Virus record (IMG/VR): IMGVR_UViG_3300023283_000387
Coordinates: 1-24,776 of that record
Direction: 5' to 3' (one strand)
Origin: a virus
Taxonomy: Duplodnaviria > Caudoviricetes
Length of the DNA stretch: 24,776 nucleotides
The translations under genes and the position numbers were made by a program. The notes beneath the pieces were generated by a model. The model saw nothing but the letters and a program-made list of their open reading frames with translations, was not told where the DNA came from and did no database searches. Positions 1-23,209 of this stretch are shown here, piece by piece (position 1 is the stretch's first letter; every line of letters starts with the position of its first letter).

Positions 1-831
1 GTCGGTCACCGGATCACCCCCACCCCCGGAATTGTCGGAAGCGGACGCATTGACGGTGCCGGGGGTTTCCGGGGTCTGGGCCGCTGTCGGCGTCTTCGAC
101 GGCTGCGGCGTCGCATCTTGCGCCGATTCGCTTTTGGGCGCAGCGGCTTCGCCCTTGGAGTCGGAGGTTTGGGTGGTGCTTCCGGGGGCGGTCTGACCCG
201 CATCCTGCTGGGTGTCGTCCTGCGTGGCGGTGTTCTTGTCGTTCATGACTGCGTGTTCCTTCCGGGGGTTGTGCTGGGCGGCGATACGTGCCGACGTGGC
301 GGTATCCGCACCGCTGTCGACGAATGAGATCTCTTTGAGGATGGCCTTGCGGACCACGTGCAGCGGCCCGTCGAAGGTTCGACCGTTGACGGTGATGCGC
401 TGGCCGTTGGGCACGAACTCGGCGTCCACCACGGCAGCGCCGATGCTGGCCTGCCAGGGGAAGCCGTTCGTCCCGCTCTTCGCAACATCGCGTGCCCAAC
501 TGGTGTCGCGGCTGACCAGGCCCTCGGCGATGACCTGACCGCCCCCGGAACCTCCGGAAGTCTTCTCGATCAGCACACGCTGGGTGTGGCCCACGCCCTG
601 GCGCGGGTTGTGGTCGAGGCGGACGGGGATGTCCTGTCGTTCGATGGCCAGGCCTTCGAGATCGACCACGATCGGGTGCGGGAACCCGGTGATTCGCATC
701 AGCCCGCCGGTGTAGGCCACCATGCTGAACCTGGGCACCCCCGGAAGTTTGCCGTCACTTCCGGGGGCCGCTGCTTCGACGGTCAGCGGGCAGCGGAAGC
801 TGAGATAGTCAGGCTGCCTGGTCTTGTTCAT
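1..831 (-). CDS. Prohead protease (HK97-type), probably continuing as scaffold/capsid; 3' end outside window
   Basis: Absent from the ORF track because it has no stop in the window. Manual translation from ATG 831: MNKTRQPDYLSFRCPLTVEAA...FSMVAYTGG...VVDLEG...IPVRLDH...GVGHT...FPWQASIG...LKEISFVDSGAD, then a low-complexity T/Q/S/P linker. Open to base 1; lies directly after the portal. Confidence 0.85.
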   Translation of the reverse strand, partial: MNKTRQPDYLSFRCPLTVEAAAPGSDGKLPGVPRFSMVAYTGGLMRITGFPHPIVVDLEGLAIERQDIPVRLDHNPRQGVGHTQRVLIEKTSGGSGGGQVIAEGLVSRDTSWARDVAKSGTNGFPWQASIGAAVVDAEFVPNGQRITVNGRTFDGPLHVVRKAILKEISFVDSGADTATSARIAAQHNPRKEHAVMNDKNTATQDDTQQDAGQTAPGSTTQTSDSKGEAAAPKSESAQDATPQPSKTPTAAQTPETPGTVNASASDNSGGGGDPVTD

Positions 832-2290
832 TGACTTTTCTTCCGGGGGCGGGGGCATCCGTGTCGGTCTCCTCGTCTTCGTCCGTGTCGGGGGTGGGGG
901 CTGCGACCGAGTCGATCAGCCCAAGTTCCTGCATCAGCGCCCGCTCCTTGGCGCGCTGGCGCAGCTCGGTCTCCCAGTCTTTGCCCTGACGGGCATATTC
1001 CGCCGCGAGCGTGGTGGTGTTGCTCGAAAGCCGTGTCGCCTGGGCATTGGCCTCCTTAGCCGGGTCGACGTGTTCGGTGCCATCGAAGAACCACTGGTGC
1101 GGCACCGCCCCGGCCGTTCGCAGGAAGGCGAATTCGGTCATCAACATCGCCTCATGAACCCACGCGGCGAAGATGCGATCGAGCACCACTTCGGCCAGGT
1201 GCGCCTGCTCAACGCGGATGGACTTGAAGTAGGTCTGGTGGTCGAGGCGGCCGGAGGCGTAGTTGTAGCCGGCGCTGTTGCCGGCGGCGACGTTGAACGG
1301 CAGATTCAGGCATCGCGCGATCTCGTTGAGAATCTCGTGCTTGAACTCGCGGTAACCGGTGCTGGGCTGCTTGGCATCGACCTGGCCGAGCTTCCACCCG
1401 TCGGGCAGAACGGTGGCCATGCGCTTCTCAAGCTCGACCACGTCCATCGGTTCCAGCGCCTGCGCTTCGCCGTTGGCCGGAGCATCGGTGAACAGCACGG
1501 CCGCGAAATCGGCAGCGGTCTCGGCGGCGGCGATGACCGCCAGCGTGTAGCGTCGTAGTTGGGCGAACAGCGGCAGCGCCGGCGTGATCTCGGGGATGCC
1601 ACGGCGTTGGCCGGGTCGATCCACACGGAACCAGTGCACGACGGCGTCGGCGGGCACCACGTCGTACTGCGCCTTCCACGCGGTCAGGTTTCCGGGGTCG
1701 CCGGGGTGTTGACGCAGGACGGTGTATGTGTGGGGGTTGCCGTAAGGATCGAGGATGATGCCGTCGATGTCGTTGGTCGTCGGCAGGAACGACATGACCG
1801 GCGAGGCCACGCGGTCGGCCTCGACGAGTTGCACATCGAGTTGGACCGGCGAATCGATCACCGGGTTGGCCGTGAGCACGGCGAAGGATTCGCCGTCGGT
1901 GGCCTTGGCCATCCGCATGGCCCGCAGCTTCTCGGCCAGGTCGATCGCCCTGGCCCATTCCGCGAATGCGTTCTCGACCCGCCGGTTGATCCCGGCATCG
2001 TTGGTCAGAAGCTGCAGACGCGGCCCGGTGCCGATGGCGTCGTTGGCGATCGTCAGCACGATGCCCTTGGCATAAGAGTTGTTCGCCACCTCGTACCGTG
2101 TCCGTTCGCGCAGCTTCTTGCGGACATCCGCCGAGGCCGCGCCGTCTGCCGACATCGCATCGGCCATCGCCCAGTGCCGGGCGTTCTCGGCGGTGGTCTG
2201 CGCCGCGTCGTACCGCGCCCGAACGACGGCGGGCATCGTCGACCGATGACGCTGCGGCTTTGCGAGACTCTTCCGGGGGAACGGCCACAT
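809..2290 (-). CDS. Phage portal protein, lambda family
   Basis: 493 aa after the terminase; lambda-portal-like motifs LRERTRYEVANNSYA, RPGQRRGIP, NYASGRL, HVDPAKEA. Confidence 0.9.
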   Translation of the reverse strand: MWPFPRKSLAKPQRHRSTMPAVVRARYDAAQTTAENARHWAMADAMSADGAASADVRKKLRERTRYEVANNSYAKGIVLTIANDAIGTGPRLQLLTNDAGINRRVENAFAEWARAIDLAEKLRAMRMAKATDGESFAVLTANPVIDSPVQLDVQLVEADRVASPVMSFLPTTNDIDGIILDPYGNPHTYTVLRQHPGDPGNLTAWKAQYDVVPADAVVHWFRVDRPGQRRGIPEITPALPLFAQLRRYTLAVIAAAETAADFAAVLFTDAPANGEAQALEPMDVVELEKRMATVLPDGWKLGQVDAKQPSTGYREFKHEILNEIARCLNLPFNVAAGNSAGYNYASGRLDHQTYFKSIRVEQAHLAEVVLDRIFAAWVHEAMLMTEFAFLRTAGAVPHQWFFDGTEHVDPAKEANAQATRLSSNTTTLAAEYARQGKDWETELRQRAKERALMQELGLIDSVAAPTPDTDEDEETDTDAPAPGRKVNEQDQAA

Positions 2291-2499
2291 CAGACGGTCC
2301 CTCCCGCAGTTCCGGGGGGCGAGATCTTCGCGAGCTTGATGCCCAGGCCTTTGGCGCGGCTGGCCTTCTTCGACTCGAGGTACTTGTCGGCGGCGATCTG
2401 CTCAGAGAGCTTGTGCTGCTCGACGCTGCCCGAATCGCCGCTGGCTTTGGCCGGCCCTTCGGCGTTGGTCTTGATGGATTCGCTGATCTGCTCGGACAT
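2290..2499 (-). CDS. Small head-associated protein (gpW position)
   Basis: 69 aa from ATG 2499 with GAGGAG RBS (2511-2516); between terminase and portal, stop overlaps portal ATG. Function inferred from position only. Confidence 0.6.
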   Translation of the reverse strand: MSEQISESIKTNAEGPAKASGDSGSVEQHKLSEQIAADKYLESKKASRAKGLGIKLAKISPPGTAGGTV

Positions 2500-2520
2500 A
2501 GACACCACGTCTCCTCACTG

Positions 2521-2555
2521 TTGTCTTTTTGCAGGAGGCGGTGTTTTTTTGCGTG
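2521..2555 (-). promoter_or_regulatory. 35-bp conserved upstream element, copy A (head genes)
   Basis: Minus strand CACGCAAAAAAACACCGCCTCCTGCAAAAAGACAA; 31/35 identical to 18530-18564; directly upstream of an RBS. Confidence 0.7.
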
Positions 2556-2590
2556 GCTTGCAGAAAATCGAAAGAAAAACTTTCGCGGGA

Positions 2591-4870
2591 TCAACTGTCA
2601 CGCTGCTGCAGCGCCGAGAGTTTCAGTCTCTGGCGTGACTGGCGTCGGCCAGAATCCACCCCCGGTAGCATCGCGCCCTGAATCGACGCGGCCACCGCGC
2701 ATCCCACCAGGCAATCCAGCCAGTGGTTGTCGGGGCGGGTGGCGCGGAGTTTCCACTCATCGACCGTGCGGCCCTGTGCCATCGACTTCACGCGGTATTC
2801 AGCAGTCAGATGGTCGGCCAGGAGCCGATGGGTCTTGTCGTCATGTCCCGGCAGCGACAGGCAGCCCGGATCGCCCATGGCCACGGTCAGCCGGGCATGG
2901 ACGAATGTCTTCCAGTAGTTCGTGTCCACCAACACATGCCGCACCTGGCGTTTGCCGACGGTGTTGGGAATGCGCCAGTGCAGACCGACGCGGTCGCCAC
3001 GTCTGCGCTTGTATTCACTGAACGGGATACTGGACGCGCCGACGTATTTGCCGTGCGCCGGCAGCAGCAGTCCCGCGTGCGGGCTCTGGCGGCAGAACTG
3101 ATACACCACGTCCGTGCTCTGCCCCCAGTTGGCGTCGATCAGACAGCGGTCGATGCGCATCTCCGCGCCGTCCTCGCGCCGATAGGCACGTGAGAGCCTT
3201 TCAGCCGTCAACTTCTCCAGCCCGCCGAAGATCTGGCCCTCGAGGCCCGCACCGGGCGTCGCGCGGCCGAGCGTGGAGTGGACGTCCCGGAGCGTGAAGT
3301 AAGCCCGCTTCTGCTCAGGCCACGCGCCGTAGTCCATGATGTACCCCGTGAAGTCGTCCTCCCACGCGCAGAGCATCCAGAACAGCACCTTCTGCTGCAC
3401 GTCGATGAACATCGTCAGATGGCTGCAACCGATGGGAACCTCGCCGGCGCGGTAACCGTTGAGCTTGGCGGCGATCTGCTCGGCGGTGAGCATCTCCTCG
3501 CCGATCTCCTCCACGATCGGCTCGTTCTGGTACTCGGCGAAGAACGCGGCCTCGTCGCGGTAGCGCAGGTTCATCGCGTGCTGGATCGCGCTGACCTCGT
3601 CCTCGTTGAACCGCTGCGGCCAGGCGATCACCGCGCCCTTGTCCATCGCATCGCGATTGGCGACGTAGAACTCGGTGGCCTCGTTGCCATCGCCGTCATT
3701 GCGCAACGAGTCGGCGCGCAGCTCGGCATACTTCGCCCACAGCTTTTCGCTCGATGGGAAGGCGTAGACCATCTTCGTTCGCTCGCCTTGCCACTCCGGG
3801 TGCTTTTCGCGGTCGAGGATGTTGTCCGCCATGTCCGCCGGGCGGATCACAGTGCAGGCCATCAGGCCGGCGATCTTCCTGCCCGGGCCGGCCATACCCA
3901 GCACGTCGCCGGCCAGAATCGCCTCGCGACGTTGCGACTGCGACGGCGACCAGGCCGACTCGGTCGTCTGAGGGTCGTCGACAAGGACCAGCTGCGGTCG
4001 CACCACCTGTCCATCAGCGCGGGCATAGTTCTGCCCGCGAATATCGCTGCCCTTCATGCCCGAGCAGGAGATGACAACACCACTGGCTTTGCTGCCCTGG
4101 ATCGTGGGCAGCACGATGCGATCGGACGACCAGTCGATCCGAGTCGGCTCGCCTTTGTGCTTCTGCCCCTTCTGCCGGTTGGTGATCCGCTCCAGACACT
4201 GGATCGGGTAGGTCACCTCGGGAAAGTCGGCGTGCAGCAGCGGGTTCGTCTCGAGCCATATCTTGATGTTCTCAAGCAGGTCGCGGGCACGCTCGGCGCT
4301 GGCCGCGATCAGACAGACGAACGGCGTCGCGCCGTTCAGCGCCGACCACAATACAGCCGTCTGGCACAGGACTGTCTTGCCACTGCCGCGCGGCATGGCC
4401 ATGGCGAACAGCCCGCCGGTGCGGACCGCCTTCTCGATCTTGTCGATCACGCGCAGGTGATCGTCCGACCACGGCAGGTAGAACACATCGGCGAAGTATG
4501 TCTCGCAGAAGTCCCGGAAGGATTCTTCGCAGATGGCGCGGCGCTTGGAGTCGACGACCTGCGGAATCTCGCCGATGTCCTGGGCGGCGCGCACCAGTTC
4601 GGCGTTGCGCTCGGCCTGACGTCGCTTCACCTCGTCGTAACTGGCAGGCTCATCCCGGGGCTTGTGGTACTCGAGCGTGAGCCAGGCGGCGTAACGGAAC
4701 AGGTCCACGGTCTTCGCATCGCCGATCGTGTACCCGGCGCGGTTGCGATGCCGGTGGAGCTGGCGCTCGTTGATCACCTCGCCCTGACCCAGCGAGTTGA
4801 GCAGGCGCGCCAGCACGGCGGGCTTGAGGCGGCGCGGGTTGATCATTTCGGAGGTCGCTTCACTGGCCAT
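2591..4870 (-). CDS. terL: Terminase large subunit with N-terminal HTH-like extension
   Basis: 759 aa; Walker A AMPRGSGKT, Walker B LVLVDD, GpA-like nuclease motifs FIDVQ, CLIDANW, DNHWLDC; upstream of portal. Confidence 0.9.
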   Translation of the reverse strand: MASEATSEMINPRRLKPAVLARLLNSLGQGEVINERQLHRHRNRAGYTIGDAKTVDLFRYAAWLTLEYHKPRDEPASYDEVKRRQAERNAELVRAAQDIGEIPQVVDSKRRAICEESFRDFCETYFADVFYLPWSDDHLRVIDKIEKAVRTGGLFAMAMPRGSGKTVLCQTAVLWSALNGATPFVCLIAASAERARDLLENIKIWLETNPLLHADFPEVTYPIQCLERITNRQKGQKHKGEPTRIDWSSDRIVLPTIQGSKASGVVISCSGMKGSDIRGQNYARADGQVVRPQLVLVDDPQTTESAWSPSQSQRREAILAGDVLGMAGPGRKIAGLMACTVIRPADMADNILDREKHPEWQGERTKMVYAFPSSEKLWAKYAELRADSLRNDGDGNEATEFYVANRDAMDKGAVIAWPQRFNEDEVSAIQHAMNLRYRDEAAFFAEYQNEPIVEEIGEEMLTAEQIAAKLNGYRAGEVPIGCSHLTMFIDVQQKVLFWMLCAWEDDFTGYIMDYGAWPEQKRAYFTLRDVHSTLGRATPGAGLEGQIFGGLEKLTAERLSRAYRREDGAEMRIDRCLIDANWGQSTDVVYQFCRQSPHAGLLLPAHGKYVGASSIPFSEYKRRRGDRVGLHWRIPNTVGKRQVRHVLVDTNYWKTFVHARLTVAMGDPGCLSLPGHDDKTHRLLADHLTAEYRVKSMAQGRTVDEWKLRATRPDNHWLDCLVGCAVAASIQGAMLPGVDSGRRQSRQRLKLSALQQRDS

Positions 4871-5075
4871 GGGCCGCCTCCCGCACCAGGTACGCCACGT
4901 ACTCGAGAAGGTTGATCGTGCCGTCCGCCCTCACCAACCCGCCCGCCTCGGCGACAGCGCGCACCTGGGCCTCGGTCACGCGCCGGCCATAGGCCGAAGC
5001 CAGCACCTTGGCCGCATCCACGACGGAGATCGCCGTGATCTGCAGCTTCTGGGGTTGTTCATCTCTTTGCTTCAT
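4860..5075 (-). CDS. Small HTH-like protein, putative terminase small subunit
   Basis: 71 aa overlapping the terL start; ISVVDAAKVL...VTEAQVRAVAEAG...DGTINLLEYVAYL resembles a Nu1/MerR-like winged HTH pattern. Confidence 0.55.
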   Translation of the reverse strand: MKQRDEQPQKLQITAISVVDAAKVLASAYGRRVTEAQVRAVAEAGGLVRADGTINLLEYVAYLVREAAHGQ

Positions 5076-5200
5076 CGGGACTTACGGCAATGTTTCCGGG
5101 GGCTGAAGATTAATCGCGACATCTGGCCAACCGGCCTTGATGTTCTCGCGCAGCCATGGCTTCATGTGTGTGTAAAGCCAGCATTAACAAGGAAATAGCC

Positions 5201-5467
5201 ATGCGAACCAAGCGAATCGAACTCGAAGGAATCGCCGGGCACGTCGCCATCGAACGGCAGCGCGGCAGCGGCACCATCCGGATCGACAGCATCCTGCGCG
5301 AGCCAAAGAAGGAGCAGGCGTGGATGACTTGGGAGATTCCCGCCCGCACCAGCGAGGACGAGCTGTTCAAGATCGCCGAGACCATCCAGCGGCGCTGCGA
5401 CGGCGTCGTCGGCACCAACAGCATGATCCACGACTACTACCGCGAGCTGCAGCGCTTCGCGGACTGA
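5201..5467 (+). CDS. Hypothetical protein (accessory cassette gene 1)
   Basis: 88 aa from ATG 5201 with AAGGA RBS; protein-like composition; first of five tightly packed + strand ORFs. Confidence 0.75.
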   Translation: MRTKRIELEGIAGHVAIERQRGSGTIRIDSILREPKKEQAWMTWEIPARTSEDELFKIAETIQRRCDGVVGTNSMIHDYYRELQRFAD

Positions 5468-5479
5468 AAGGATAGCCAC

Positions 5480-5755
5480 ATGACCCGATCCCCATCCATC
5501 GAGATCACCCGCCGAGGCCGGAACCTCGTCATCCGTCAAGTCTGCAGTCGCTACGGCGAGGCATTCGACCATCTGGTCGAACGCCACGACGGGTCGCCGG
5601 AAAGCATGGTCGCCGCCGCCGAACGCGTCAGCCGACGGATGTTCGAGCTGTACGACGATGCGTCGAACATCAACAGCCGGCTCGTCGCGACCGATGAGCG
5701 TGGCCTGCCGCGATGGACCATCTCCCCGAACTTCCGCGTGATCACGGAACTCTGA
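5480..5755 (+). CDS. Hypothetical protein (cassette gene 2)
   Basis: 91 aa; AAAGGA RBS immediately after the previous stop. Confidence 0.75.
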   Translation: MTRSPSIEITRRGRNLVIRQVCSRYGEAFDHLVERHDGSPESMVAAAERVSRRMFELYDDASNINSRLVATDERGLPRWTISPNFRVITEL

Positions 5756-5770
5756 GAGGAGCGCACCACC

Positions 5771-6007
5771 ATGGCCAAGCAAACCGCCCGCGAACTCTAC
5801 GACGAACGCCGCGAGGACATCGCCCGCGTTCTCGACTGGATCGAGCTCGAACTCGACAAGCACAAGACCAACGCGAAGGCGAAGCCCAGGGACTGGGGCT
5901 ATGCCGGCGACCTCGGGCATGTCCGCGAGAAGCTGATCGAGACGCTCGCCTTTCTCTCCAACGGCGAGCCGCAAGAGATCGAAGACCTGCTCAGCGAATG
6001 TCGCTGA
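5771..6007 (+). CDS. Hypothetical helical protein (cassette gene 3)
   Basis: 78 aa; GAGGAG RBS; amphipathic helices flanking DWGYAGDLGHV. Confidence 0.8.
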   Translation: MAKQTARELYDERREDIARVLDWIELELDKHKTNAKAKPRDWGYAGDLGHVREKLIETLAFLSNGEPQEIEDLLSECR

Positions 6008-6043
6008 GCATTTCTGTTTCAACCTCCAACAAGGAGACACGCG

Positions 6044-6670
6044 ATGAAGAAGTCCGACGTTCAGATTGGCGCAACCTACCTCGTGAAGGTCGCCGGCAAC
6101 CTCGTGCCGGTCAAGATCACCCGTGAGCACGACAACGGCGGATGGGAAGGCACCAGCGTCAAGACCGGCAAGGCCATCCGGATCAAGAGCGCTCAGCGCC
6201 TCCGCGAAGAGACGAAGACCAACGCTGACGCGTCCCCGGCCAAGCGACCGGTGAAGAAGAAGCTGACCGCCACCGAACGCAGATCGCTGCAGGCTCAGCA
6301 CAAGGCCGACCAGGAGAACGCCCGCGTCCGTGACGAACGGGCCAAGGCGAAGGACGGCATGACCACCAGCGAACGGACGATGGCCGAGAGCGCGAAGGAT
6401 TCCAGGCAGGCCAAGGCCCGCACCACGAAGAAGCGCGAGGGCATGTCCTGCCTCGACGCCGCCGCCAAGGTGCTTGAAGAGGCCGGCGAACCGCTGAACA
6501 CCAAGGCCATGGTCGAGGCGATGGCCGCCAAGGGCTACTGGACCAGCGACGCGCCTACGCCTGCGGCCACGTTGTACTCCGGAATCCTCCGCGAGCTGCA
6601 GAAGAAGGGCGACGTCTCGCGCTTCACCAAGATCGAGCGAGGCCTGTTCACCTTGGCGAAGGGAGCGTGA
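6044..6670 (+). CDS. Basic protein with C-terminal HARE-HTH-type winged helix
   Basis: 208 aa; AAGGAG RBS; SH3-like beta-rich N-terminus, Lys/Arg-rich linker, C-terminal MSCLDAAAKVLEEAGEPL...TPAATLYSGILRE...RFTKIERGLFTL. Confidence 0.75.
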   Translation: MKKSDVQIGATYLVKVAGNLVPVKITREHDNGGWEGTSVKTGKAIRIKSAQRLREETKTNADASPAKRPVKKKLTATERRSLQAQHKADQENARVRDERAKAKDGMTTSERTMAESAKDSRQAKARTTKKREGMSCLDAAAKVLEEAGEPLNTKAMVEAMAAKGYWTSDAPTPAATLYSGILRELQKKGDVSRFTKIERGLFTLAKGA

Positions 6671-6673
6671 TGC

Positions 6674-7030
6674 ATGCCACGACCCCATCGACAGCGCGAC
6701 GTGGATTTCCGCGTGCTCGACGATCACCTCGAGATTACCGTCAGCTTCGCAGACCAATCGGATAGCAACTACACGCACCGATGCACGCGCGACGTGTTCC
6801 GCGAGGTGGCCTACGCCATCGAGGAACGGGCGGCGGGTGGTTCGACCCTCGAGGAACTGGTCGAGGCCATCGACGCGCCGTACACGCAGGTCAACGTCGC
6901 GCTGGCGTTCATGAAGGAACGCGGGTGCGTCGAAGTCAGGCGTCGTCGCACCTACCCCGCATCGGGCTGGCTGTACGAGGACGCCATGATCGAGTTCATG
7001 CACTTGGCGGAATGCCCGCAGACTGATTGA
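6674..7030 (+). CDS. Hypothetical protein, possible winged HTH (cassette gene 5)
   Basis: 118 aa; GGGAG RBS; TLEELVEAIDAPYTQVNVALAFMKERGCVE has a wHTH-like pattern. Confidence 0.7.
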   Translation: MPRPHRQRDVDFRVLDDHLEITVSFADQSDSNYTHRCTRDVFREVAYAIEERAAGGSTLEELVEAIDAPYTQVNVALAFMKERGCVEVRRRRTYPASGWLYEDAMIEFMHLAECPQTD

Positions 7031-7032
7031 TT

Positions 7033-9089: not shown

Positions 9090-9380
9090 GGATGCACCTC
9101 CGTGTGCGTTGGGGGCCGGGTGGGGTCAGAAGTGCCTCCGGCGAAAATCCGGACAGCGCAAACAAACTGTGTGCAGACAGCCGACGCGTTCCCGTGCCAT
9201 CTCGGGCAGGTGCGCCGGGAAGGAACCGCGACGCGCTGCCACAGTGGCAGACGGCGGGGCCTCGGCCCACGGTCGCCCCTGTCGGAGAGGGGCGTCCGGT
9301 GGCCGCGTCCGTACCACCGGGTTGGCCGGACGCGACACGGGCCAACGTGGGCGACGCGGGGGTAATCCGGGGGCGGCGTG

Positions 9381-14580: not shown

Positions 14581-14581
14581 A

Positions 14582-15217: not shown

Positions 15218-15219
15218 CG

Positions 15220-15636: not shown

Positions 15637-15869
15637 TACCACTTCGCCTCCTCGTCAGCCCAAGACATGGTGTGCAGCCACACCAGCAGTGCGATGAACC
15701 CGATGGCGACCAGGGCCGTTGGGCCACCGGCAACCGACAGGCACAGGCCGAAGAGGCGATCCATCTGCGTCCACTTGCCGAACTCGGCAACGTGGAACCG
15801 GCGCATGATCAGGTAGCACAGTGGCGCACAGATGATCCAGAGAATCAGCATCGTGATGATCAGTGTCAT
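15636..15869 (-). CDS. Small two-TM membrane protein
   Basis: 77 aa with two hydrophobic stretches; fills the gap between DUF669 and rusA and is coupled to rusA. Confidence 0.65.
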   Translation of the reverse strand: MTLIITMLILWIICAPLCYLIMRRFHVAEFGKWTQMDRLFGLCLSVAGGPTALVAIGFIALLVWLHTMSWADEEAKW

Positions 15870-15885
15870 GGTGTGTTTCTGTTGT

Positions 15886-16353
15886 TCAGCGTTTCCAGGG
15901 CGGGGTGTTGCTCGTGACAGGGGCCTGTTGCGGTTGTCCGCCCCCGGAAGTGACCGAGGCCTTGGGCTCGTAGCCCTTGACCTCGTTGCTCAGCTCGCCG
16001 GTGTCCTGGCGCTTCTTGCACTTGACGGTGATCAGCAGCGGGATGTTGTGAAGCTCGACCGAGTCGCGCGGCTGCATCACGCCAGTGGCGCGGCAGATGG
16101 CCGAGAGGTTGCCCCGGGCGATCTTCACCGTCGTCGCGTTGGGGTGGTTGATGCACAACCGGTCCCACACCTTGCGGTCCTTGAACTCACCTTCGAGGAC
16201 GGTGAACTCGAGCTGCAGGTAGCTGCCGTCGCCGTTTTTCGTCGGCTTCATCTCCGACGCGGTGACGGCCGCGAGGTACTTGCCCGCCGGCAGCGGGTCG
16301 AAGGCGGCATTGGGTTCGACTTCGTGCGCATTGAATCCGTTGAGGTTTGCCAT
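15886..16353 (-). CDS. DUF669 protein (phage SSB-like)
   Basis: 155 aa; FDPLPAGKY, YLQLEFTVLEG, NEVKGY, terminal PPW; AAGGAG RBS; follows the AAA ATPase as in Sak4-type modules. Confidence 0.85.
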   Translation of the reverse strand: MANLNGFNAHEVEPNAAFDPLPAGKYLAAVTASEMKPTKNGDGSYLQLEFTVLEGEFKDRKVWDRLCINHPNATTVKIARGNLSAICRATGVMQPRDSVELHNIPLLITVKCKKRQDTGELSNEVKGYEPKASVTSGGGQPQQAPVTSNTPPWKR

Positions 16354-16356
16354 GGT

Positions 16357-17202
16357 TCAGGACTCCTTGGTTGTTGCGGGTTGGGTGGTGTGATCACCGG
16401 CGAGGCGCAGGTTCGGTCTCGCATCGGGACTGGCATTCGTGGTGCTGGTCAGCGCCTGCATCAGCGCCGACCAAGAGAGGGGAAGCTCAGCGGGCAGGTC
16501 GTAGCGGTTCTTCGCCACGCAGGCCGGGCTGCCGACGGTGCGAAGCACACGCTCACCGCCATCCTTGCCCAGGCCAGCCGCGATGGTCCGATCGCGTCCG
16601 AACCCGCCGCCCCCGGACTCGGTCTTGGTGATGATCTTCCGCGTGGCGAACAGCACCGCGTCCGCCCATTCGGTGATCAGCGCCGTGGCGTGCTTGTGCA
16701 GGCGCGGCGAGTAGCGGTCGTAGGCCGCGTGCTCGGGATCGGCGAAGGTCTCGACCTTGGCGTGGGCGAGCAGGATCACGCACATGCCGCGCCGGTTGCG
16801 GAGCGTGTTGAGGTCGTGCAGCACCGAACGCCACTGCGTCAGGGCGTGCGTGTATCCGCGGGCGTAGCCGCCGTCGACCTTTTCGATGCTGGTGACGCCG
16901 TACTGCCGGCACAGGTCGTCCCAGATCAGCCGCTCGAGCCAGTCGACGCTGTCGATGACGACCGACTCGAAGTCGTGCTCGTCGTTGATCAGCGCCGCCA
17001 GCGACTCCTTCACCTCCGCGAACGTGGTCGCCAGGGGGAAACTGGCGCAGTCGATCTGGTCGAGACCGTCTTCGGTCTGGATGAAGATCGGGTTGGGTGC
17101 CTGGGCGGCGGCGGTCGACTTGCCGATGCCCTCGGTGCCGTAGATCAGCAGTCGCGGCGGCGAGTGGCGTCGGCCGGTGTGGATGCGTTCCATCAGTGTC
17201 AT
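16357..17202 (-). CDS. AAA_24 ATP-binding protein (Sak4-like recombination ATPase)
   Basis: LIYGTEGIGKS Walker A, VVIDSVDWLE Walker B, VAKNRY; ATG 17202 in an ATGA overlap. Confidence 0.85.
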   Translation of the reverse strand: MTLMERIHTGRRHSPPRLLIYGTEGIGKSTAAAQAPNPIFIQTEDGLDQIDCASFPLATTFAEVKESLAALINDEHDFESVVIDSVDWLERLIWDDLCRQYGVTSIEKVDGGYARGYTHALTQWRSVLHDLNTLRNRRGMCVILLAHAKVETFADPEHAAYDRYSPRLHKHATALITEWADAVLFATRKIITKTESGGGGFGRDRTIAAGLGKDGGERVLRTVGSPACVAKNRYDLPAELPLSWSALMQALTSTTNASPDARPNLRLAGDHTTQPATTKES

Positions 17203-17513
17203 GCGCATGCTCCGGTGCAGGTGGTGGGTGATTGTGTGAAGGGGCCGGGCAGCCAGGTCATCGCCTCTCGATCGCTGACGGTGCAGGTGCGTGCCGGCCC
17301 ATTGCGGACAAGGTTGGCTTTGCGGAGTTCAGGCAGACGCTTGTGCGCCTTGATGCCGAGTTCGTCTTCGATCTCGCGGGCGGTCAGACCGGGCAGCCGC
17401 TGAACGGCGTCGAAACACATGGCCCGGTGCCGTAGCGCCGAACCGCTGGACTCGATCTCCCGCCCGGCCATTGCGGAGGTGTGCGGGTCGGTGTTGCGGT
17501 AGTTGTGATTCAT
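17199..17513 (-). CDS. Small phage winged-HTH protein
   Basis: 104 aa from ATG 17513 with GAGGA RBS; RNTDPHTS...PGLTAREI...HKRLPEL pattern seen in phage wHTH proteins. Confidence 0.7.
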   Translation of the reverse strand: MNHNYRNTDPHTSAMAGREIESSGSALRHRAMCFDAVQRLPGLTAREIEDELGIKAHKRLPELRKANLVRNGPARTCTVSDREAMTWLPGPFTQSPTTCTGACA

Positions 17514-17548
17514 CGTGCGGGTCCTCATTGGCTTTGGGTTCGTGGGTG

Positions 17549-17668
17549 AAAAAGCGCCCGGGCGGTTGCGGAGAAGTCCGGAGCCGTCTGCCGCCCCCAC
17601 TCCGGGGGCCGGTCCACGCTTCCGTGCCTTTGCGGCACTCGGCTGCCGGGGGCAATCCGCCCGGGCGC
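17549..17668 (-). ncRNA. Candidate structured RNA / attenuator with U-tract
   Basis: 12+4 bp closing stem (17554-17569 with 17652-17668), nested stems inside, followed by T5 on the minus strand. Confidence 0.5.
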
Positions 17669-17677
17669 GAAGAGGGG

Positions 17678-18511
17678 CTATGCGACTTCCATCACGCGGA
17701 TGTCCTCGTACCCCGTCGGAAACGCATCGATCTCCGAGGCCCGACGCAGGCGAGCGATCGCCGCCTCGTTCTCCTGTCGCGCGATCGCCAGTGTGCTTTC
17801 ACTGACCTGCCACACGCCGCAGCGGAACGGCTCGATCTTTTCGATGGCGATCAGGTAGACAGGCACGTATTCGCCGATCATCTCGGCGAGCACCGCCTGG
17901 TAGAAAGCAAGCTGGTTGTGGTAGCGCCGGCGCTTGGTTTCGTTTTCAAACCAGGTGAGATCGGCGGTGGTCTTCAGGTCCACGATGCCCCGGTGCGGAT
18001 GCACCCAGTCGATCCTGATCTGACAAGGCGTGTCGCAGTACATGGCGCGAACGACGCCTTCGGATCGGCCGTAGAGCAGCAGGTCCACGGCCTCGTCGTT
18101 CATCGCCACGCCCGAGGCCATCTGCTCGATGAGGGCGACGTTGTCGTGCGAAAGCACCGGCTTGCCCTGGGCCTCGGCCCACTCGGCGAACGCCTTCGTC
18201 GTCGATCCGAACGGTTTGCCCGTCTTGAGATTGATCGGCCCGCCGATGGCGAATTGCGTCTCGTAGGCGTCACGGCCCTCGAGAATGCGGACGTGCGTCG
18301 CCCGGCCGATCAGCAGCGCCGGTGTGTCGCCATTCCGGGGGTCCTGGATCAGACCGAGTTGCTTCTTGCGATACAGCCACGGACAGGCCATGAAGTCGAT
18401 CAGCTGGTGGCTCGACAGATTCTCGCCGGCCTTCGCGTGGTATTCATCCGCCGGTTCGGCGGCGAGAACGCTGAGATCGATGGCCAGGTTGTCGTTGGTG
18501 TTCGTAGTCAT
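17678..18511 (-). CDS. PD-(D/E)XK exonuclease, DUF3799/RecE(ExoVIII)-like
   Basis: 277 aa from ATG 18511; YH...LSSHQL, IGRATH..ILE, RIDW, IVDLKTT, YHNQLAFY, IAIEK. Confidence 0.88.
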   Translation of the reverse strand: MTTNTNDNLAIDLSVLAAEPADEYHAKAGENLSSHQLIDFMACPWLYRKKQLGLIQDPRNGDTPALLIGRATHVRILEGRDAYETQFAIGGPINLKTGKPFGSTTKAFAEWAEAQGKPVLSHDNVALIEQMASGVAMNDEAVDLLLYGRSEGVVRAMYCDTPCQIRIDWVHPHRGIVDLKTTADLTWFENETKRRRYHNQLAFYQAVLAEMIGEYVPVYLIAIEKIEPFRCGVWQVSESTLAIARQENEAAIARLRRASEIDAFPTGYEDIRVMEVA

Positions 18512-19134
18512 TGCTGTGTCCTTCCACCTTTGTCTTTTTGCAGGCGGCACGGTTTTTTTGCGTGCGATCCCAGGAATTCAGAAAAACCCTCGCGCTTCGC
18601 GAGGTGACAGGCGATGCGCTTCATGGCGCGCGTCACGGTGGAGGGGGCCACGTTCAGTTCGCGGGAGGCACTGAAAGGTGAGTGCCCGGCCTTCAGCAGT
18701 TCGCAGAGCTGATGTTCGAAGTCCGAGCGACCGCGCATCGCGTGGTCGAGTTCGTCGCGCAGATCGACGCTGCGATGCGGGTTCTCGCCGACGGGGTCGA
18801 CAATCAGAACATCGAGCCCCGACTCGACGTCATCGAACCCCACTGTGTCGAGGGTATTTCCGAAGCCTTCTCGAATTCGGATCAGTCGGCGGACATGGTG
18901 CTTGTATCGCCGGTTGATCACCATCAGCACGAAGCGGTGCAACAGACATTTGTCCGGGTCGTACACCTGTCGCGCCTGTAGGATCGCGATGCAGAAATCC
19001 TGCTGCAGGTCATCGCCGTCGGCACGGCTCAGGCCGAACTTGCGGCGCAGCCGCCTGGCGGAGCCTTCGATGCGCCGCAGCACTTGGGGGGTAAGGAACA
19101 GTTCGGACGCGGGGAGGTCGGCTTTGGTAGCCAT
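18508..19134 (-). CDS. Phage-encoded sigma-70/ECF-like factor
   Basis: 208 aa; region-2-like DDLQQDF...YDPDK...FVLMVINR and region-4-like HTH SASRELNVAPSTVTRAMKRI; AGGAG RBS. Confidence 0.7.
   Translation of the reverse strand: MATKADLPASELFLTPQVLRRIEGSARRLRRKFGLSRADGDDLQQDFCIAILQARQVYDPDKCLLHRFVLMVINRRYKHHVRRLIRIREGFGNTLDTVGFDDVESGLDVLIVDPVGENPHRSVDLRDELDHAMRGRSDFEHQLCELLKAGHSPFSASRELNVAPSTVTRAMKRIACHLAKREGFSEFLGSHAKKPCRLQKDKGGRTQQ
18530..18564 (-). promoter_or_regulatory. 35-bp conserved upstream element, copy B (recombination/replication genes)
   Basis: Minus strand CACGCAAAAAAACCGTGCCGCCTGCAAAAAGACAA; 31/35 identical to 2521-2555. Confidence 0.7.
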
Positions 19135-19213
19135 CTGCAGATCTCCTGGAACGGAGGTTTCGAATCGCGACCCACGGCGGGCCGCTCCGACCTCCGGGCC
19201 GGTTGCAGATGGC
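19130..19213 (-). promoter_or_regulatory. 5' leader hairpin sequestering RBS and AUG of the sigma-like gene
   Basis: GCCATCTGCA/TGCAGATGGC (10 bp), CGGAGGT/ACCTCCG (7 bp) and GCGGCCC/GGGTCGC (7 bp) nest in one stem. Confidence 0.65.
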
Positions 19214-19270
19214 GGCGCGAAAACTTCTGCGAGCGCTGCAAGCGCCTCAAAAGCAGCACGTTGCGCGCAT

Positions 19271-19316
19271 AAAAAAAGCGATTGCAGTTGCAGCAGATCG
19301 CCGTAACTGCAATCGC
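19271..19316 (-). terminator. Rho-independent terminator after the 327-aa gene
   Basis: Perfect 12-bp inverted repeat GCGATTGCAGTT (19278-19289) / AACTGCAATCGC (19305-19316), followed by T7 on the minus strand, 25 bp after the stop. Confidence 0.8.
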
Positions 19317-19341
19317 GATGTCAGTGATTCTGTGAGTAGAC

Positions 19342-20325
19342 TCAGCGCCGGCGCTGGTAGTTCAGCACCGATTCCAGAGACTCCGCAGCGTCCCAAAGGA
19401 TGCGGAGCTTGACGGCACGCTTGTCATGACGGCAGCGTGAAACGGACGACGTCGTCATGCCGAGGTTCTTCGCCAGAACCTGCTGCTGAGGCAGAGGCAG
19501 CAACGTCGGCTCCTGCCCACGATCGATCTGGGTGTATGCGTGGTCGCGTGCGGCGAGCAGGTGCGACTCAAGGGCTCTTTCAAGCTTCTCGATGTCCGCC
19601 GTACGAGTGCCCCTTATCGGCGCTGACCGCTTGTTTCGGTAGTTGGCCAGTAGCGTCGTACCCACCAGCTGACAGAATGCCTGGAGATACTCTTCCCACG
19701 CGGGCGTTTCAGCGAGGCCATCGGAAACCGGCGTCAACACCTCGTTGAGTGTGACCAGCATGAGCTTCTGATCGCGCGCCCTGGTGTCGATGGCTTCGGT
19801 CCAGTTCGCGCGGGTCGGTGTAAGCAGGATCGCTCCCGGCTTCGCGTTGTTCGAACCGAGCTCGAGCACGGCATGCGACAGTCCGGACGCCTGCTGGCAC
19901 ATCACCAGGAACACCGGGAAACTTGCCGCCTTCTTCGGCTCCCAGTTGGCGATGCGAAAGCAGGTGGTCGCCTCATCGACCGGCGTCCGTGCGATGTTCA
20001 GGCAACTGAGCGTTTCACACACGACCTTCCGGATCGCACGCGGGTTGAGTCGATGCAGCACGATGTCGTCCCGTTGCAGCTGGACCCGCCGCTGCCAGTC
20101 ATCGGCATCCACGGCCGTGATCAGTCCATCGTTGTGACGAATGACCCGCAGCCACCGTCCCGGCCGCTGCAGGTCGGGGTATCTGGTGGCCATCTGCCCC
20201 GTCGGCGACAGCATCGGCTCGATGACGGGAAAGCAGTCGCCTGCGACACGCTTCCATTCAGCTGCCACCGCCGTGCGGCTTGGCCGGGATTCAAGCAGTC
20301 GCCAGAACGGCGTCAGCGTCGACAT
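19342..20325 (-). CDS. Hypothetical protein with C-terminal HTH
   Basis: 327 aa; GGAG RBS; overlaps the upstream gene by 35 bp; QQVLAKNLGMTTSSVSRC is HTH-like. Confidence 0.8.
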   Translation of the reverse strand: MSTLTPFWRLLESRPSRTAVAAEWKRVAGDCFPVIEPMLSPTGQMATRYPDLQRPGRWLRVIRHNDGLITAVDADDWQRRVQLQRDDIVLHRLNPRAIRKVVCETLSCLNIARTPVDEATTCFRIANWEPKKAASFPVFLVMCQQASGLSHAVLELGSNNAKPGAILLTPTRANWTEAIDTRARDQKLMLVTLNEVLTPVSDGLAETPAWEEYLQAFCQLVGTTLLANYRNKRSAPIRGTRTADIEKLERALESHLLAARDHAYTQIDRGQEPTLLPLPQQQVLAKNLGMTTSSVSRCRHDKRAVKLRILWDAAESLESVLNYQRRR

Positions 20326-21508
20326 CGGCCTGCTGCTCCTGTTCGTAACAGATGAAACCGCGCCGCGTCATCCACTCATGAATGATGGCGCTGTCCGATT
20401 CGCGGTCGAACGCCGCGATGTTCGGCGGTTCGATGGTCACGATCCGCTCTTTGCCCCCGACGAACCGCACGCGGAACTTGGCCCGGACCAGCCGGATCGA
20501 TGCCGACTCGTCAGCGAGATTGCGGCCCTTGTCCTTCAGTGCCCTGAACACATCGTGTGAGCGGCGGATTTCCAGATCATGCTGTTCACTGTCGTGCTCG
20601 ATGTGCAGTTCGATGAGGTCGATACCGTCAAGCCCATCCACGTCATTCCACAGCAGGGACTGCCGGCCATGGTCGATCAGCGGCTGGAGCGTGTACTTGG
20701 ATACGGGATCATCGAAGCGGAAGAACGCCTCGTCGCCGAACAGATGCTTCCCGAGGTAAAGGCAGAAGGCCTGGCGTTCGCCCTTGGTTTCCGTGTTGAT
20801 CGCCAGTTCACCTGACTGCGGGTAGAGGATCAGCACATCGAATTTCTCCGGTCGATAAAAGACGCTGCCGGATTCGCCATCCGCTTCCACGGTGCCCTCG
20901 CGTTTGATCCGCTGGCCGTGCCTGATCAGAAGCCAGACCCCGTCTTCCCGCACAAACGGGAACACGCGCGCACCGCGTCCCTTCTTCTTGAACTCGTACC
21001 ACCCGTTCAGATCGTCTTCGAGCTGTCGCAGCAGTTCATCGGACAGGTGAGGCATGTCGGGGCGCTGCACCATGGAGGTGAAGTACGACTCGAACTTCTG
21101 CGGCCGCGCCCGGTACTGTTCGGCGTGTACCCGCTCCAGGATGTTGGGGTCCGCCAGCCAGGCCAGCAGCGTCAGGTCTTCCGGAGACGGGTCGCCCGTT
21201 CCCAGGTCGATCTCCAGTTCCTGGCATTCATGCAGAATCCGCTCGTAGCAGTCCGGATCGGCCAGGTTGTCGACGAAGTACAGTGCATCGAGCAGTGCTT
21301 CGGGCGTATCCACGCCCGGCGACATCAGGATGCGGGCCAGATCCTCGAACTCGAACTGGTCCGGGTCGTGCGTCCATCGGAGCCCTCGCTCCTCAAGGAA
21401 GCGCCGGAAGACGGCCTGTGACTCGAAGAACCGGATGAGTAATGCGAAGTCGATCCTTTTGAGGATCGCCACGTTGGTGAAACGTTTGAGTCGGAAGCTC
21501 TGGGCCAT
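20291..21508 (-). CDS. Hypothetical protein
   Basis: 405 aa, globular-looking composition, AGAAAGGA RBS; no family recognised. Confidence 0.85.
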   Translation of the reverse strand: MAQSFRLKRFTNVAILKRIDFALLIRFFESQAVFRRFLEERGLRWTHDPDQFEFEDLARILMSPGVDTPEALLDALYFVDNLADPDCYERILHECQELEIDLGTGDPSPEDLTLLAWLADPNILERVHAEQYRARPQKFESYFTSMVQRPDMPHLSDELLRQLEDDLNGWYEFKKKGRGARVFPFVREDGVWLLIRHGQRIKREGTVEADGESGSVFYRPEKFDVLILYPQSGELAINTETKGERQAFCLYLGKHLFGDEAFFRFDDPVSKYTLQPLIDHGRQSLLWNDVDGLDGIDLIELHIEHDSEQHDLEIRRSHDVFRALKDKGRNLADESASIRLVRAKFRVRFVGGKERIVTIEPPNIAAFDRESDSAIIHEWMTRRGFICYEQEQQADVDADAVLATA

Positions 21509-21531
21509 GGCTGATCGGGTCCTTTCTGGAG

Positions 21532-21551
21532 TGTGAACGTGACGCTAAACG
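21532..21551 (-). promoter_or_regulatory. Putative operator 2 (CGTTTAG-N6-GTTCACA)
   Basis: Matches the site at 22704-22723 with identical spacing; 23 bp upstream of the 405-aa gene. Confidence 0.5.
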
Positions 21552-21575
21552 GTTGGGGTTAAAAAAACACGCCGA

Positions 21576-22274
21576 TCACCCGAACAGGGATGGTGGCGGC
21601 TGCCTTTCAAGGATCAGACCCATGCCCAGAAGCCGAATCTGCATCGCCTGGCCGGACACCTTGAAGGCATCCGCCATCCGGTGCGCGACATCGACCGTGG
21701 GGTAGTCATCTGCGCCGACGCCGAAACGCGCGCGGCGTTCAGCGAACTCGGCCTCGGCCACGTACGGCTCGGGGCTGCCGCTGATCCGGCTCCACCATTG
21801 CTTCATCAGTGGCTCGGGCATCAGCAGGTAGCTGGCGAACGCATCCGCCTGCCATTCGATCTTGGGCTTGCGCGATTTGGGCAAATCACGACAGACCACC
21901 GACGGCTCGGCCTTCGCGCCGAACAACCCCGCGCTGCGGGCCTCGATCAACTGGTGCCGATGCAGAACCCAGTGGCCGGTTTCATGAGCCATCGTGAAGT
22001 GGTATCGCCCCTCACGGTCAGGATGCTCATACGGATCGAGGGACTGGTCGATCAGCACCTCGCGATCCTCGACCCAGATCGCACCCAGCACATCCGGCCG
22101 TCCGAAGCGCCCGCACAGATCTTTGAAGTCCAGAGACAACCCAAGGTGACAATCGATGATTTCGGTCGCCGGCACGGGCGGCTCGTCGATGTCACCGAAC
22201 TTTGCGGCGTACTCGCCCAGCAAGCCGCTGGCAGCCCGCTCGATATGCGCTTCTGGAAGAAACTTCACGTCCAT
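21576..22274 (-). CDS. ImmA/IrrE family metallo-endopeptidase (antirepressor)
   Basis: 232 aa; RYHFTMAHETGH (HExxH), EWQADAFASYLLMP, FKVSGQAMQIRL; directly downstream of the XRE HTH. Confidence 0.93.
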   Translation of the reverse strand: MDVKFLPEAHIERAASGLLGEYAAKFGDIDEPPVPATEIIDCHLGLSLDFKDLCGRFGRPDVLGAIWVEDREVLIDQSLDPYEHPDREGRYHFTMAHETGHWVLHRHQLIEARSAGLFGAKAEPSVVCRDLPKSRKPKIEWQADAFASYLLMPEPLMKQWWSRISGSPEPYVAEAEFAERRARFGVGADDYPTVDVAHRMADAFKVSGQAMQIRLLGMGLILERQPPPSLFG

Positions 22275-22288
22275 CCGGTTACCTCAAT

Positions 22289-22657
22289 TCAGTCCTGTCG
22301 GCGGCGAAGCCGCTCGGTCAGTTTCCGCAATTGCTCGTCGCTCAGGTTCAGGTCGCGAGCCGTTCGGAGAAAATCCGCCATGGCTTTGGGCTGGTCCTGG
22401 ATGATCTCCTTCAGGTCCGGATCGACCCTGTTGGCCAGTGCAAGCAGTTCGTCGGCGTCGATGTCCAGCAGTTCAGCCATCTTCTTGATCCGCTTCGGGG
22501 CGGGTGGGGCGAACTCGCCCGTCTCCACCTTGCTCAGGAAGGTCGGGCTGACGCCAACGGCCTCCGCGAATTTCCGCAGAGAATAGTTGGGGTCGTCCTT
22601 CTTCCTGGCCTCCCGGAGCTGGCGTATCCGTCTTCCGAATTCCGGGTTGCCGGCCAT
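22289..22657 (-). CDS. XRE-family HTH repressor (ImmR-like)
   Basis: 122 aa; FGRRIRQLR...SLRKFAEAVGVSPTFLSKVETG; no S24 autoprotease domain. Confidence 0.92.
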   Translation of the reverse strand: MAGNPEFGRRIRQLREARKKDDPNYSLRKFAEAVGVSPTFLSKVETGEFAPPAPKRIKKMAELLDIDADELLALANRVDPDLKEIIQDQPKAMADFLRTARDLNLSDEQLRKLTERLRRRQD

Positions 22658-22671
22658 TGGTTCATCCCGTC

Positions 22672-22740
22672 TTTATAGTGTCTGGTCGTCCGCATGTCTA
22701 GATCGTCAACTTTATACTAAACGCCCATGCTGTGCGTCAA
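22672..22740 (-). promoter_or_regulatory. Tandem sigma-70-like promoters for the repressor operon
   Basis: TTGACG(22740-22735)-N18-TATAAA(22716-22711) and TAGACA(22700-22695)-N17-TATAAA(22677-22672). Confidence 0.6.
22704..22723 (-). promoter_or_regulatory. Putative operator 1 (CGTTTAG-N6-GTTGACG, imperfect palindrome)
   Basis: Overlaps the -10 of the distal promoter; repeated at 21532-21551. Confidence 0.55.
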
Positions 22741-23209
22741 GCCCCGCCCGTGAGTTTTCCACATCCCGGTCCGCCCGGACCCCCACCTCCTGCCACATCG
22801 CCCTCTGCCGCCGCCAGTCCACTTCAGCCGCGATTCGCCTGATCTGGCGTTCCACGATCGGGTCGCGCCCGGCCTGCACGCGCGGCAGCGCCAGCAGCGC
22901 CTCCTGAATGTCCGGGGCCAAGTGCAGGAAATTCATGATCTGCGTCACCCGTGCCCGGGTCACGTGACCGAGTTCAGCCAGTTCCGCCTGATCGCGGACG
23001 GCTCCGCGTTGCAGCAGGTGCTCGAACCGCAGCGCCAGTGCCATCAGGCGTGTGACGCGTGGCATCCGGCCGGGTTCCGCCTCGATCGATTCTTCCTCGA
23101 CGACCTGCTGCACGGCGCGACGGGCGTTGTGTTCACGGATGAACTTGAGCGAATGGCGCTGGGTGACTCCTGTTGCGGAGAATTCCGGGGGTTCCGGGGG
23201 TTCAGGCAT
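22712..23209 (-). CDS. Integrase-associated protein with ParB/KorB-like HTH
   Basis: 165 aa from ATG 23209 (GGAG RBS, overlaps integrase stop); QAELAELGHVTRARVTQIMNFLHLAPDIQEAL. Confidence 0.75.
   Translation of the reverse strand: MPEPPEPPEFSATGVTQRHSLKFIREHNARRAVQQVVEEESIEAEPGRMPRVTRLMALALRFEHLLQRGAVRDQAELAELGHVTRARVTQIMNFLHLAPDIQEALLALPRVQAGRDPIVERQIRRIAAEVDWRRQRAMWQEVGVRADRDVENSRAGLDAQHGRLV

Follow-up and report, generated by a model that had tools for sequence, protein, structure and literature searches.

The locus and its over-represented word

The 24,776-nt stretch of DNA analysed here (hereafter the window; IMG/VR virus record IMGVR_UViG_3300023283_000387, positions 1 to 24,776) is occupied by a temperate phage-like element (1..24776, minus strand) that encodes a serine recombinase, a repressor/IrrE-like pair, a Prim-Pol, a helicase, a terminase and a lambda-type portal. 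Its genes are interspersed with a short word, the 9-mer CCCCCGGAA (longer consensus CCCCCGGAAG(TT)), which displays a signature of insertion and overwriting that is real, family-wide and apparently undescribed. The original prediction, made from the letters of the window, had not recognised the motif, and no description of it by motif or lineage name was found in the literature, with subscription journals thinly covered and supplements outside the scope of the search. The window portal shares 88% identity with its counterpart from a Planctomycetales bacterium ZRK34 prophage, and many relatives of it occur across Planctomycetota and neighbouring phyla; the putative host of the window was deduced from this kinship together with the motif.

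The 8-mers TTCCGGGG (n = 17) and CCCCGGAA (n = 4) amount to 21 copies, of which 13 + 4 = 17 extend to the 9-mer, and our recount is identical to that of the original prediction. Markov models of orders 0 to 5 give expectations of 1.8, 1.2, 0.9, 1.2, 1.7 and 5.0 8-mers and of 0.6, 0.3, 0.2, 0.3, 0.4 and 1.8 9-mers. The zero-order values agree with the earlier estimate of about two and less than one, and the enrichment, for which a higher-order check had been proposed, holds at orders up to 5 (p ~1e-24 for the 9-mer at order 3). The word ranks first among all window 9-mers, its two overlapping 8-mers rank first and second, and the copy density is 686 per Mb. Twenty of the 21 copies lie in open reading frames (ORFs), where all three frames and both orientations are used, as predicted. 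A strand bias had also been noted (17 of 21 copies); it stands within the window (17:4, p = 0.007) but is not general, the ratio being 264:203 when pooled over motif-rich related loci and 297:286 and 106:101 in two whole genomes.

Copies in the window are in-frame insertions and overwrites

Alignment to homologues showed clear in-frame insertion, 6-21 bp in length, for 12 of the 21 copies (designated below by their first position); in four of these the inserted sequence is exactly 9 bp of motif. Two copies in the low-complexity tail of the protease/head ORF (24 and 67, 23..74) face each other with their C-runs outward. Copy 67 is a clear +9 insertion, while copy 24, which is common to three relatives and is +6 relative to one, makes a weaker case, as does the copy in a variable linker of the same ORF (180..188, plus strand), where the alignment is ambiguous. 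Further along this ORF, a +9 insertion consists of the 9-mer itself (260..268, plus strand). It is missing in 8/8 homologues shown, and so is a +21 insertion (542..562, minus strand, copy 543) that contains one perfect and one imperfect unit and encodes TSGGSGG. The inverted pair at 738..767, present as predicted, has its C-runs outward with the ancestral spacer between them and is common to one relative (L122); copy 759 is a +12 insertion and copy 739 an overwrite with no net change in length.

The portal gene contains a clear +9 insertion (HPG-DPGN-L, 1690..1698, plus strand) and an ambiguous copy at the N-terminus that stands in place of ancestral codons (2271..2279, plus strand). At its C-terminus, a partial and a full unit (841..855, plus strand) add about 21 to 24 bp, a weaker case; different motif insertions occupy this position in relatives L144, L040 and L140. 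Similarly, the +12 insertion close to the end of the 72-amino-acid head gene (2307..2318, plus strand, copy 2310) has counterparts at the same site in L127 and L141 that are different 12-bp motif insertions. The sole intergenic copy (5094..5102, plus strand) is about +10/+11 relative to homologues without the motif.

A +12 insertion in the ParB/N6-N4 methylase gene (8572..8583, plus strand, copy 8575) is common to L082 and L083 and missing in six other homologues shown. The Prim-Pol gene has an overwrite of unchanged length (10270..10278, plus strand) and a +9 insertion made of the four-C form plus G (11036..11044, plus strand). The +6 insertion in the helicase gene (13253..13261, plus strand) is also present in L469, where the motif has decayed, and a +6 insertion with overwrite in rusA (15504..15512, plus strand) coincides with a different motif insertion in L483. 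An exact 9-mer insertion in the DUF669 gene (15941..15949, minus strand, copy 15942) and a +9 insertion in the PD-(D/E)XK gene (18333..18341, plus strand) are each missing in 9/9 homologues shown. The predicted tandem pair, encoding PEPPEPPE (23183..23200, plus strand), is +9 and overwritten relative to the single homologue found; copy 23183 is graded a weaker insertion and copy 23192 ambiguous. The insertions that had been read from the encoded portal, small head protein and protease (1690, 2310 and 543; +9, +12 and +21) hold at the DNA level, and the insertion process that had been proposed is supported: homologues from motif-poor hosts are without the motif codons, and each gap is clean and divisible by three in length.

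Filled and empty alleles in related loci

Related loci are not independent of one another, and the counts given here are of sites, not of independent events. CCCCGGA is present in 160 of the 420 clean indels found among these loci (length 5 nt or more). A motif-less homologue exists for 197 motif contexts, 72 of which have the same length and 82 of which differ by +6, +9, +12, +15, +18 or +21. After collapsing similar sites, 45 insertion sites with an empty allele were obtained; 16 of these have a length of 9 bp, and for no fewer than six the inserted sequence can be taken to be the exact 9-mer. Such exact insertions are found in the pairs L144/L017 (with 44/44 flanking bases identical), L126/L128, L096/L102 and L005/L108, twice in L083 relative to the window, and at window position 15942. 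Overwriting is seen with clean flanks in the pair L005/L093, where 6/10 motif bases and 2/60 flanking bases have changed.

Lengths divisible by three are about as frequent in motif indels as in the others (75/90 versus 167/210), and the frame rule is thus ordinary selection on genes. The decayed copy in the L469 helicase gene shows that the word need not be kept. Copies that survive are in frame, at gene termini and in variable stretches, or form paired arms in RNA helices.

These alleles bear on an explanation that we find improbable, namely that the word is a selected binding site for a host protein (for uptake, nuclease protection or nucleoid organisation) that helps mobile elements, the copies being supplied by mutation and slippage. 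Selection alone predicts mostly point changes, whereas most new copies change the length of the DNA and several are the exact 9-mer; copies also decay, and the sister genomes G271 and G400 are without the word. The binding-site explanation is favoured by the gap-free comparisons, in which the closest differing homologues are just one or two substitutions away in 92/136 cases, and by the raised density of the word in several unrelated phages.

The word marks a host lineage

Genomes were called enriched if they contained at least 100 copies and four times as many as the control. Enrichment was found in 63/121 genomes of the family of G002 (Phycisphaerales), with the highest count, 1,643 copies, in G327, and in 14/301 genomes of a class sample (which includes the unpublished and non-enriched G288) and 3/251 of a phylum sample. 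The family label, Phycisphaeraceae, rests on one member, G005. The enrichment is genome-wide. In a count of the kind proposed in the original prediction, the whole genomes of four motif-rich or weakly motif-bearing loci contain 207, 583, 298 and 390 9-mers versus 41, 19, 18 and 13 reversed controls, and a fifth contains 49 versus 60. Of 39 viral loci with the compound signature, 29 have further copies (77 copies versus 2 control).

The word is a trait of the host lineage and not of the phage. Whatever the mechanism, it marks this lineage, and among related phages there is a sharp division between those with and those without it. Motif-rich and motif-poor genomes are interspersed on a RecA tree (30 genomes; for example, G271 groups with G401 at 98/96 support), and part of this patchiness may be due to mobile DNA missing from genome bins. 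No close pair of host genomes was found among ten tried, and the check for polymorphism within a population yielded nothing but contigs in which relatives are mixed. Host regions of 51-67% GC contain one and the same word, in genomes whose best-matching genes are 70-76% identical.

Base composition and distribution also bear on what we regard as the least probable explanation, that the word is created by methylation around CCGG in the manner of HIP1, or is a codon, low-complexity or assembly artefact. It has a CCGG core; PPE and PGS linkers are common in proteins, a PPEPPE linker carries arrays in G654, and helix-hairpin-helix-type codons give one natural copy common to two genomes. Copies are found, however, in three frames, on two strands, in non-coding DNA and in RNA genes; the word is present in closed genomes and absent from relatives of equal GC. 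Window ORF 7033-7680 has PC and ENP motifs, which we take to be those of C5 methylases, and has no Pfam or PDB match. The link that had been drawn from this ORF to the word did not survive: the ORF is present in four of the related loci searched, one of which is motif-free, and with the motif masked CCGG exceeds expectation only marginally (ratios 1.04-1.10). The methylation or artefact explanation is largely refuted.

As a separate observation, two phage records of 50% and 48% GC, G651 (L378-L380) and G652 (L381-L384), have the same triple array and related 9-bp units such as CCACGGAAT and CCACGGATA, with 21 versus 1 and 22 versus 5 8-mers, and they perhaps point to a wider family of words.

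Copies concentrate in mobile DNA and enter RNA genes

The density of the word is 514 per Mb in the G001 prophage locus versus 36 per Mb genome-wide, and 389 per Mb over twelve prophage loci of G002 versus 79 per Mb genome-wide. The twelve loci (L003-L011, L013, L041 and L042) are related, bear portal genes and lie on one closed chromosome, G002:C1; four of them have group II intron-type reverse transcriptase (RT) genes. Hotspots in the hosts are mostly unrelated mobile DNA, namely Mu-like prophages, integrase and Prim-Pol elements, a serine-recombinase element and a secretion cluster of lower GC. A 194-kb phage with its own replisome contains 148 8-mers versus 5 control, and its relative of equal GC has one copy in 22 kb versus 19 in the matching stretch.

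Copies are inserted in the gene for RNase P RNA in 3/5 genomes and in the tmRNA gene in 1/5, and each of the two inverted pairs within RNase P RNA folds into a stem. In G371 (L296), the RNase P RNA gene also contains an inverted array of 7-bp repeats that resembles the STRRs (short tandemly repeated repetitive sequences) of cyanobacteria and is unrelated to the 9-mer. Several copies of two families of hairpins like repetitive extragenic palindromes (REPs) in G327 (L210, L213) have the word in their loops.

Anatomy of the unit

Only the longer C-runs are enriched in motif-rich relative to motif-poor phage loci: the five-C form occurs at 286 versus 4 per Mb (65-fold) and the four-C form at 104 versus 13 per Mb (8-fold), whereas the three-C form (43 versus 46 per Mb) and CCCCCG without GAA (419 versus 447) are not enriched. 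The tail after GGAA is graded, with G at 0.56-0.80, T at 0.34-0.46 and T at 0.21-0.51 in four data sets, followed by approximately background frequencies. This tail, which resembles a weight matrix, and the need for four to five C plus GGAA speak for a selected binding site, as does the scarcity of single-mismatch variants at inner positions (2-8 versus 58 perfect copies). Longer tails shared between unrelated sites show no excess, and thus no donor flanks are carried along. The symmetric, palindromic form shows no enrichment, with 1-7 sites per genome, at or near control.

A partial unit, CCCCCGCCCC, lies directly before the full unit in 33/46 cases. Arrays of at least three units, and of up to about 15, are present in 5/5 genomes, with periods mainly of 9, 10 and 12; the unit is 9 bp long and has variants of 10 and 12. 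Neighbouring copies within 80 bp form 164 direct and 16 inverted pairs. Inverted pairs no more than 80 bp apart have their C-runs outward in 29 cases versus 4 (the rows are not independent), and there is no bias beyond 80 bp. Helix formation covers the RNA cases of this bias only. A fold-back origin of the inverted pairs was rejected, as the arms seldom reach past the motif. A purine|pyrimidine target rule proved weak, with a purine before the C-run in 92% of G653 copies and in 85% of controls.

Clustering of this kind, together with the patchiness on the RecA tree and the occurrence within RNase P RNA helices, as with STRRs, would suit a self-copying micro-repeat of the STRR, SDR (small dispersed repeat) or REPIN kind, in which a trans-acting nuclease or transposase recognises a genomic copy and pastes 9-12 nt elsewhere, often beside another copy. 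The orientation of the close inverted pairs is also that of the 9-bp repeats that flank GxxExxY genes. We nevertheless hold such an origin to be unlikely. Unrelated sites do not share flanks in excess, the orientation bias is gone beyond 80 bp, and most copies have no unit directly upstream (196/312 host copies and 285/379 phage copies). The word flanks 0/30 GxxExxY cassettes, and no gene recurs between inverted copies in the DNA retrieved (33 C-outward and 37 opposite cases). The GxxExxY genes themselves present a pattern of their own: most of those examined (L386-L415) are bounded by inverted arrays of 9-bp units of the CCACAGAGG, CCACGGATG and CCGCGAAGG types and lie between housekeeping genes.

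The insertion boundaries are relevant to another explanation, in which an abundant ready-made oligonucleotide (an abortive primer, an excised piece or a repeat cDNA) is captured at breaks or forks with the help of phage annealing proteins. At 32/45 sites the insertion may start at or inside the C-run, the exact 9-mer insertions are blunt and without microhomology, mobile elements contain an excess of copies, and both the window and G653 encode proteins of exonuclease, single-strand-binding or annealing type. Abortive C-strand products should, however, leave CCCCCG standing alone, yet this sequence is not enriched, and no source locus was found among structural RNA genes and 12-mer sites. We give this explanation little credence.

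A model for the writing of the word

Chance cannot account for one nine-base sequence inserted at many sites, and selection by itself should mostly recruit point changes, which together argue for a template; as no flanks are carried along, a short fixed template is favoured over genomic donors. We therefore put forward, at somewhat less than an even chance, the reading that the word is a lineage-specific insertion footprint of Phycisphaeraceae-type bacteria and their phages, left at breaks or nicks in DNA by a host enzyme for which a single short sequence serves as the fixed template. Extension of a 3' end to a boundary is favoured because the GGAA side is always included in the partial products, which reach the complete C-run. 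In this model, weak pairing of a free 3' end with the template at its GGAAG(TT) side would be followed by extension to a fixed boundary, yielding ...TTCCGGGGG-3', much as in telomerase action or prime editing. Joining of the new flap would give an insertion, its replacement of the old strand would give an overwrite, and tandem arrays would arise by re-priming or later slippage. Selection would then retain only harmless placements. The copies themselves would have no function, and mobile DNA may gather more of them through more frequent cutting or weaker purging. As judged from the sequences, the anatomy of the unit is compatible with such fixed-boundary primer extension with re-priming.

A more specific form of this reading, which we regard as doubtful, is that Phycisphaeraceae-type bacteria carry a natural 'prime editor' or a telomerase-like end-healing enzyme that stamps a templated word of 9-12 nt into breaks. 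Such an enzyme would mark chromosomal and especially invading DNA, leave each genome with scars numbering from hundreds to more than a thousand, and add short Pro/Gly/Ser peptides to proteins.

Several observations weigh against the templated-writer reading. Gain and decay are not polarised for pairs that differ by one or two mismatches. For copies that relatives have in common, the rate of differences is 0.04-0.18 at core positions versus 0.17 in flanks, a comparison that is biased by the choice of sites but compatible with selection. Several exact insertions show no pairing at the GGAAG side (G|T and G|A targets) and fit the capture of a ready-made oligonucleotide better. No writer enzyme was found among the candidates RVT_1, Ku, AEP, PolX and GxxExxY across the 121 family genomes. 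RVT_1 matches over the cut-off are present in 40/63 motif-rich versus 17/58 motif-poor genomes of this sample (p = 2e-4), but these RTs are of mixed kinds and none exceeds the cut-off in G327, G328, G100 and G354, which are among the richest genomes and in which a divergent or lost RT is possible. Ku (14/121), AEP (8/121) and PolX (113/121) do not track the word.

The template fared no better. None that is conserved was found in 16S (3 genomes), 23S (5), tmRNA (5), RNase P (5) or 6S RNA (8 matches in 15 genomes), nor among all 35 12-mer sites of G001, G371 and G408, in a survey that had 9-10-mer sites, signal recognition particle RNA and tRNAs outside it; in G399 10/34 and in G320 6/72 12-mer sites were looked at. 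The only conserved 12-mer locus is a shared protein-coding site. The 6S RNA candidates (L545-L552) came from 8/15 family genomes, and three of them are above the Rfam cut-off.

Other candidates for the writer were rejected. The weak RVT_1 matches that were read are not RTs, and no RT was found among 125/146 proteins scanned in G653. Several motif-rich genomes have an RT resembling those of retrons, but it is found in the motif-poor G231 and G261 as well. A phage-borne writer finds no candidate either, as no gene family beyond lineage markers separates 32 motif-rich from 43 motif-poor loci. The retron-like RT has a hydrophobic N-terminal segment and was seen in several Phycisphaerae genomes (L171, L172, L181 and L186).

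The writing mechanism is directly testable, given an invariant unit, many pairs of filled and empty alleles, motif-rich and motif-poor sisters and a complete genome that carries the word, that of ZRK34. A templated enzyme, if one is responsible, would represent the bacterial equivalent of the insertion of telomeric repeats at breaks and would act in nature as a writer of short sequences.

Comparison with known signals and repeats

The word resembles DNA uptake sequences (DUS) and uptake signal sequences (USS), Chi, KOPS and HIP1 in being short, over-represented and frequent within coding sequence, and differs from all of them in arising largely by insertion and in its patchiness among sister genomes. 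Chi and KOPS have a strong orientation bias with the direction of replication. The original prediction had suggested them as analogues and had proposed an examination of replichore skew; no polarity was seen along the two near-complete chromosomes on which strands are mixed, G001 (54 of the first 100 copies on the plus strand) and G371 (first 100 of 135 copies), for which origin and terminus are not mapped. HIP1, another suggested analogue, is palindromic and tied to the methylase of its core, whereas the word is non-palindromic, its symmetric form is at or near control, it mostly arises with a change in length, and the C5-like ORF is uncoupled from it (host methylases were not surveyed). As for uptake sequences, the accessible part of one source describes DUS as abundant in core genes rather than in foreign DNA and as promoting uptake via a receptor protein (PMC11893778). 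Contrary to the analogy with DUS that had been drawn, the word is not concentrated in core genes, is denser in prophages than genome-wide, and has its hotspots in mobile elements.

Closest in behaviour are the cyanobacterial STRRs and telomeric repeats inserted at breaks, and the word is a member of neither. We know of no explanation for the origin of short dispersed repeats such as the STRRs; for these, PMC2858038 lists Vioque 1997 among its references. STRRs are, in the part of the source available, lineage-restricted 7-bp (heptamer) repeats of filamentous cyanobacteria, dispersed and in tandem (PMC2670836). The word shares with them a lineage-restricted, short and non-palindromic unit, dispersed and tandem occurrence, inverted pairs able to form hairpins and presence inside RNase P RNA genes. 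It differs in that its unit is 9 bp, occurs in Planctomycetota and mostly has no adjacent unit; copies keep the reading frame of phage structural genes and reach their highest density in mobile elements, and comparison with empty alleles reveals single units inserted and overwrites of unchanged length.

Interstitial telomeric sequences are inserted at double-strand breaks, according to the accessible portions of three reports (PMC7215372, PMC2246262, PMC8537989). Like these, the word is fixed, has one G-rich strand, lies at internal sites and can be compared between filled and empty orthologous loci (45 sites for the word). Unlike them, it is bacterial and filtered by reading frame, and no telomerase, template RNA or repeat-capped end was found, with the ends of G653 checked and no telomere-like ends seen there.

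Two bacterial RTs invite comparison. With a short RNA as its template, the antiviral DRT10 (UG17) synthesises cDNA as tandem repeats of a 9-nt unit; as far as the available text goes, the cDNA is protein-primed, the template loop is poorly conserved and integration is not mentioned (10.1101/2025.10.16.682844). It shows that a bacterial RT is able to make 9-nt tandem repeats, and entry of these repeats into a genome is not shown in that text; the word, by contrast, is invariant and genome-resident, and no RT tracks it. G2L4 RT acts at double-strand breaks via microhomology, and the accessible text describes no fixed inserted sequence (10.1101/2022.03.14.484287). For the word, no RT family is common to the motif-rich genomes.

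Nostoc SDRs and Rickettsia RPEs are dispersed small repeats. So are, in the sections of the sources available, REP/REPIN-RAYT (PMC3116915) and NTS-Ssn (PMC11893778). With all of these and the GxxExxY repeats, the word shares its dispersal, its inverted doublets and the in-frame position of some copies, but they are hairpins of at least about 20 nt or inverted arrays around cassette genes, and the word is 9-12 nt long. No cassette bounded by the word was found in the DNA fetched, the four-helix-bundle, DUF559, RAYT and GIY-YIG families not having been searched genome-wide.

Other features of the window

At the end of the Prim-Pol gene (window 9386-9657), another over-represented word, GGTGAAAC/GTTTCACC, occurs seven times in direct and inverted orientation, the copies being possibly replication-origin repeats; a word that resembles it ranks top in several relatives. 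Between the methylase and terminase genes, a HARE-HTH gene lies on the opposite strand (window 6044-6670).

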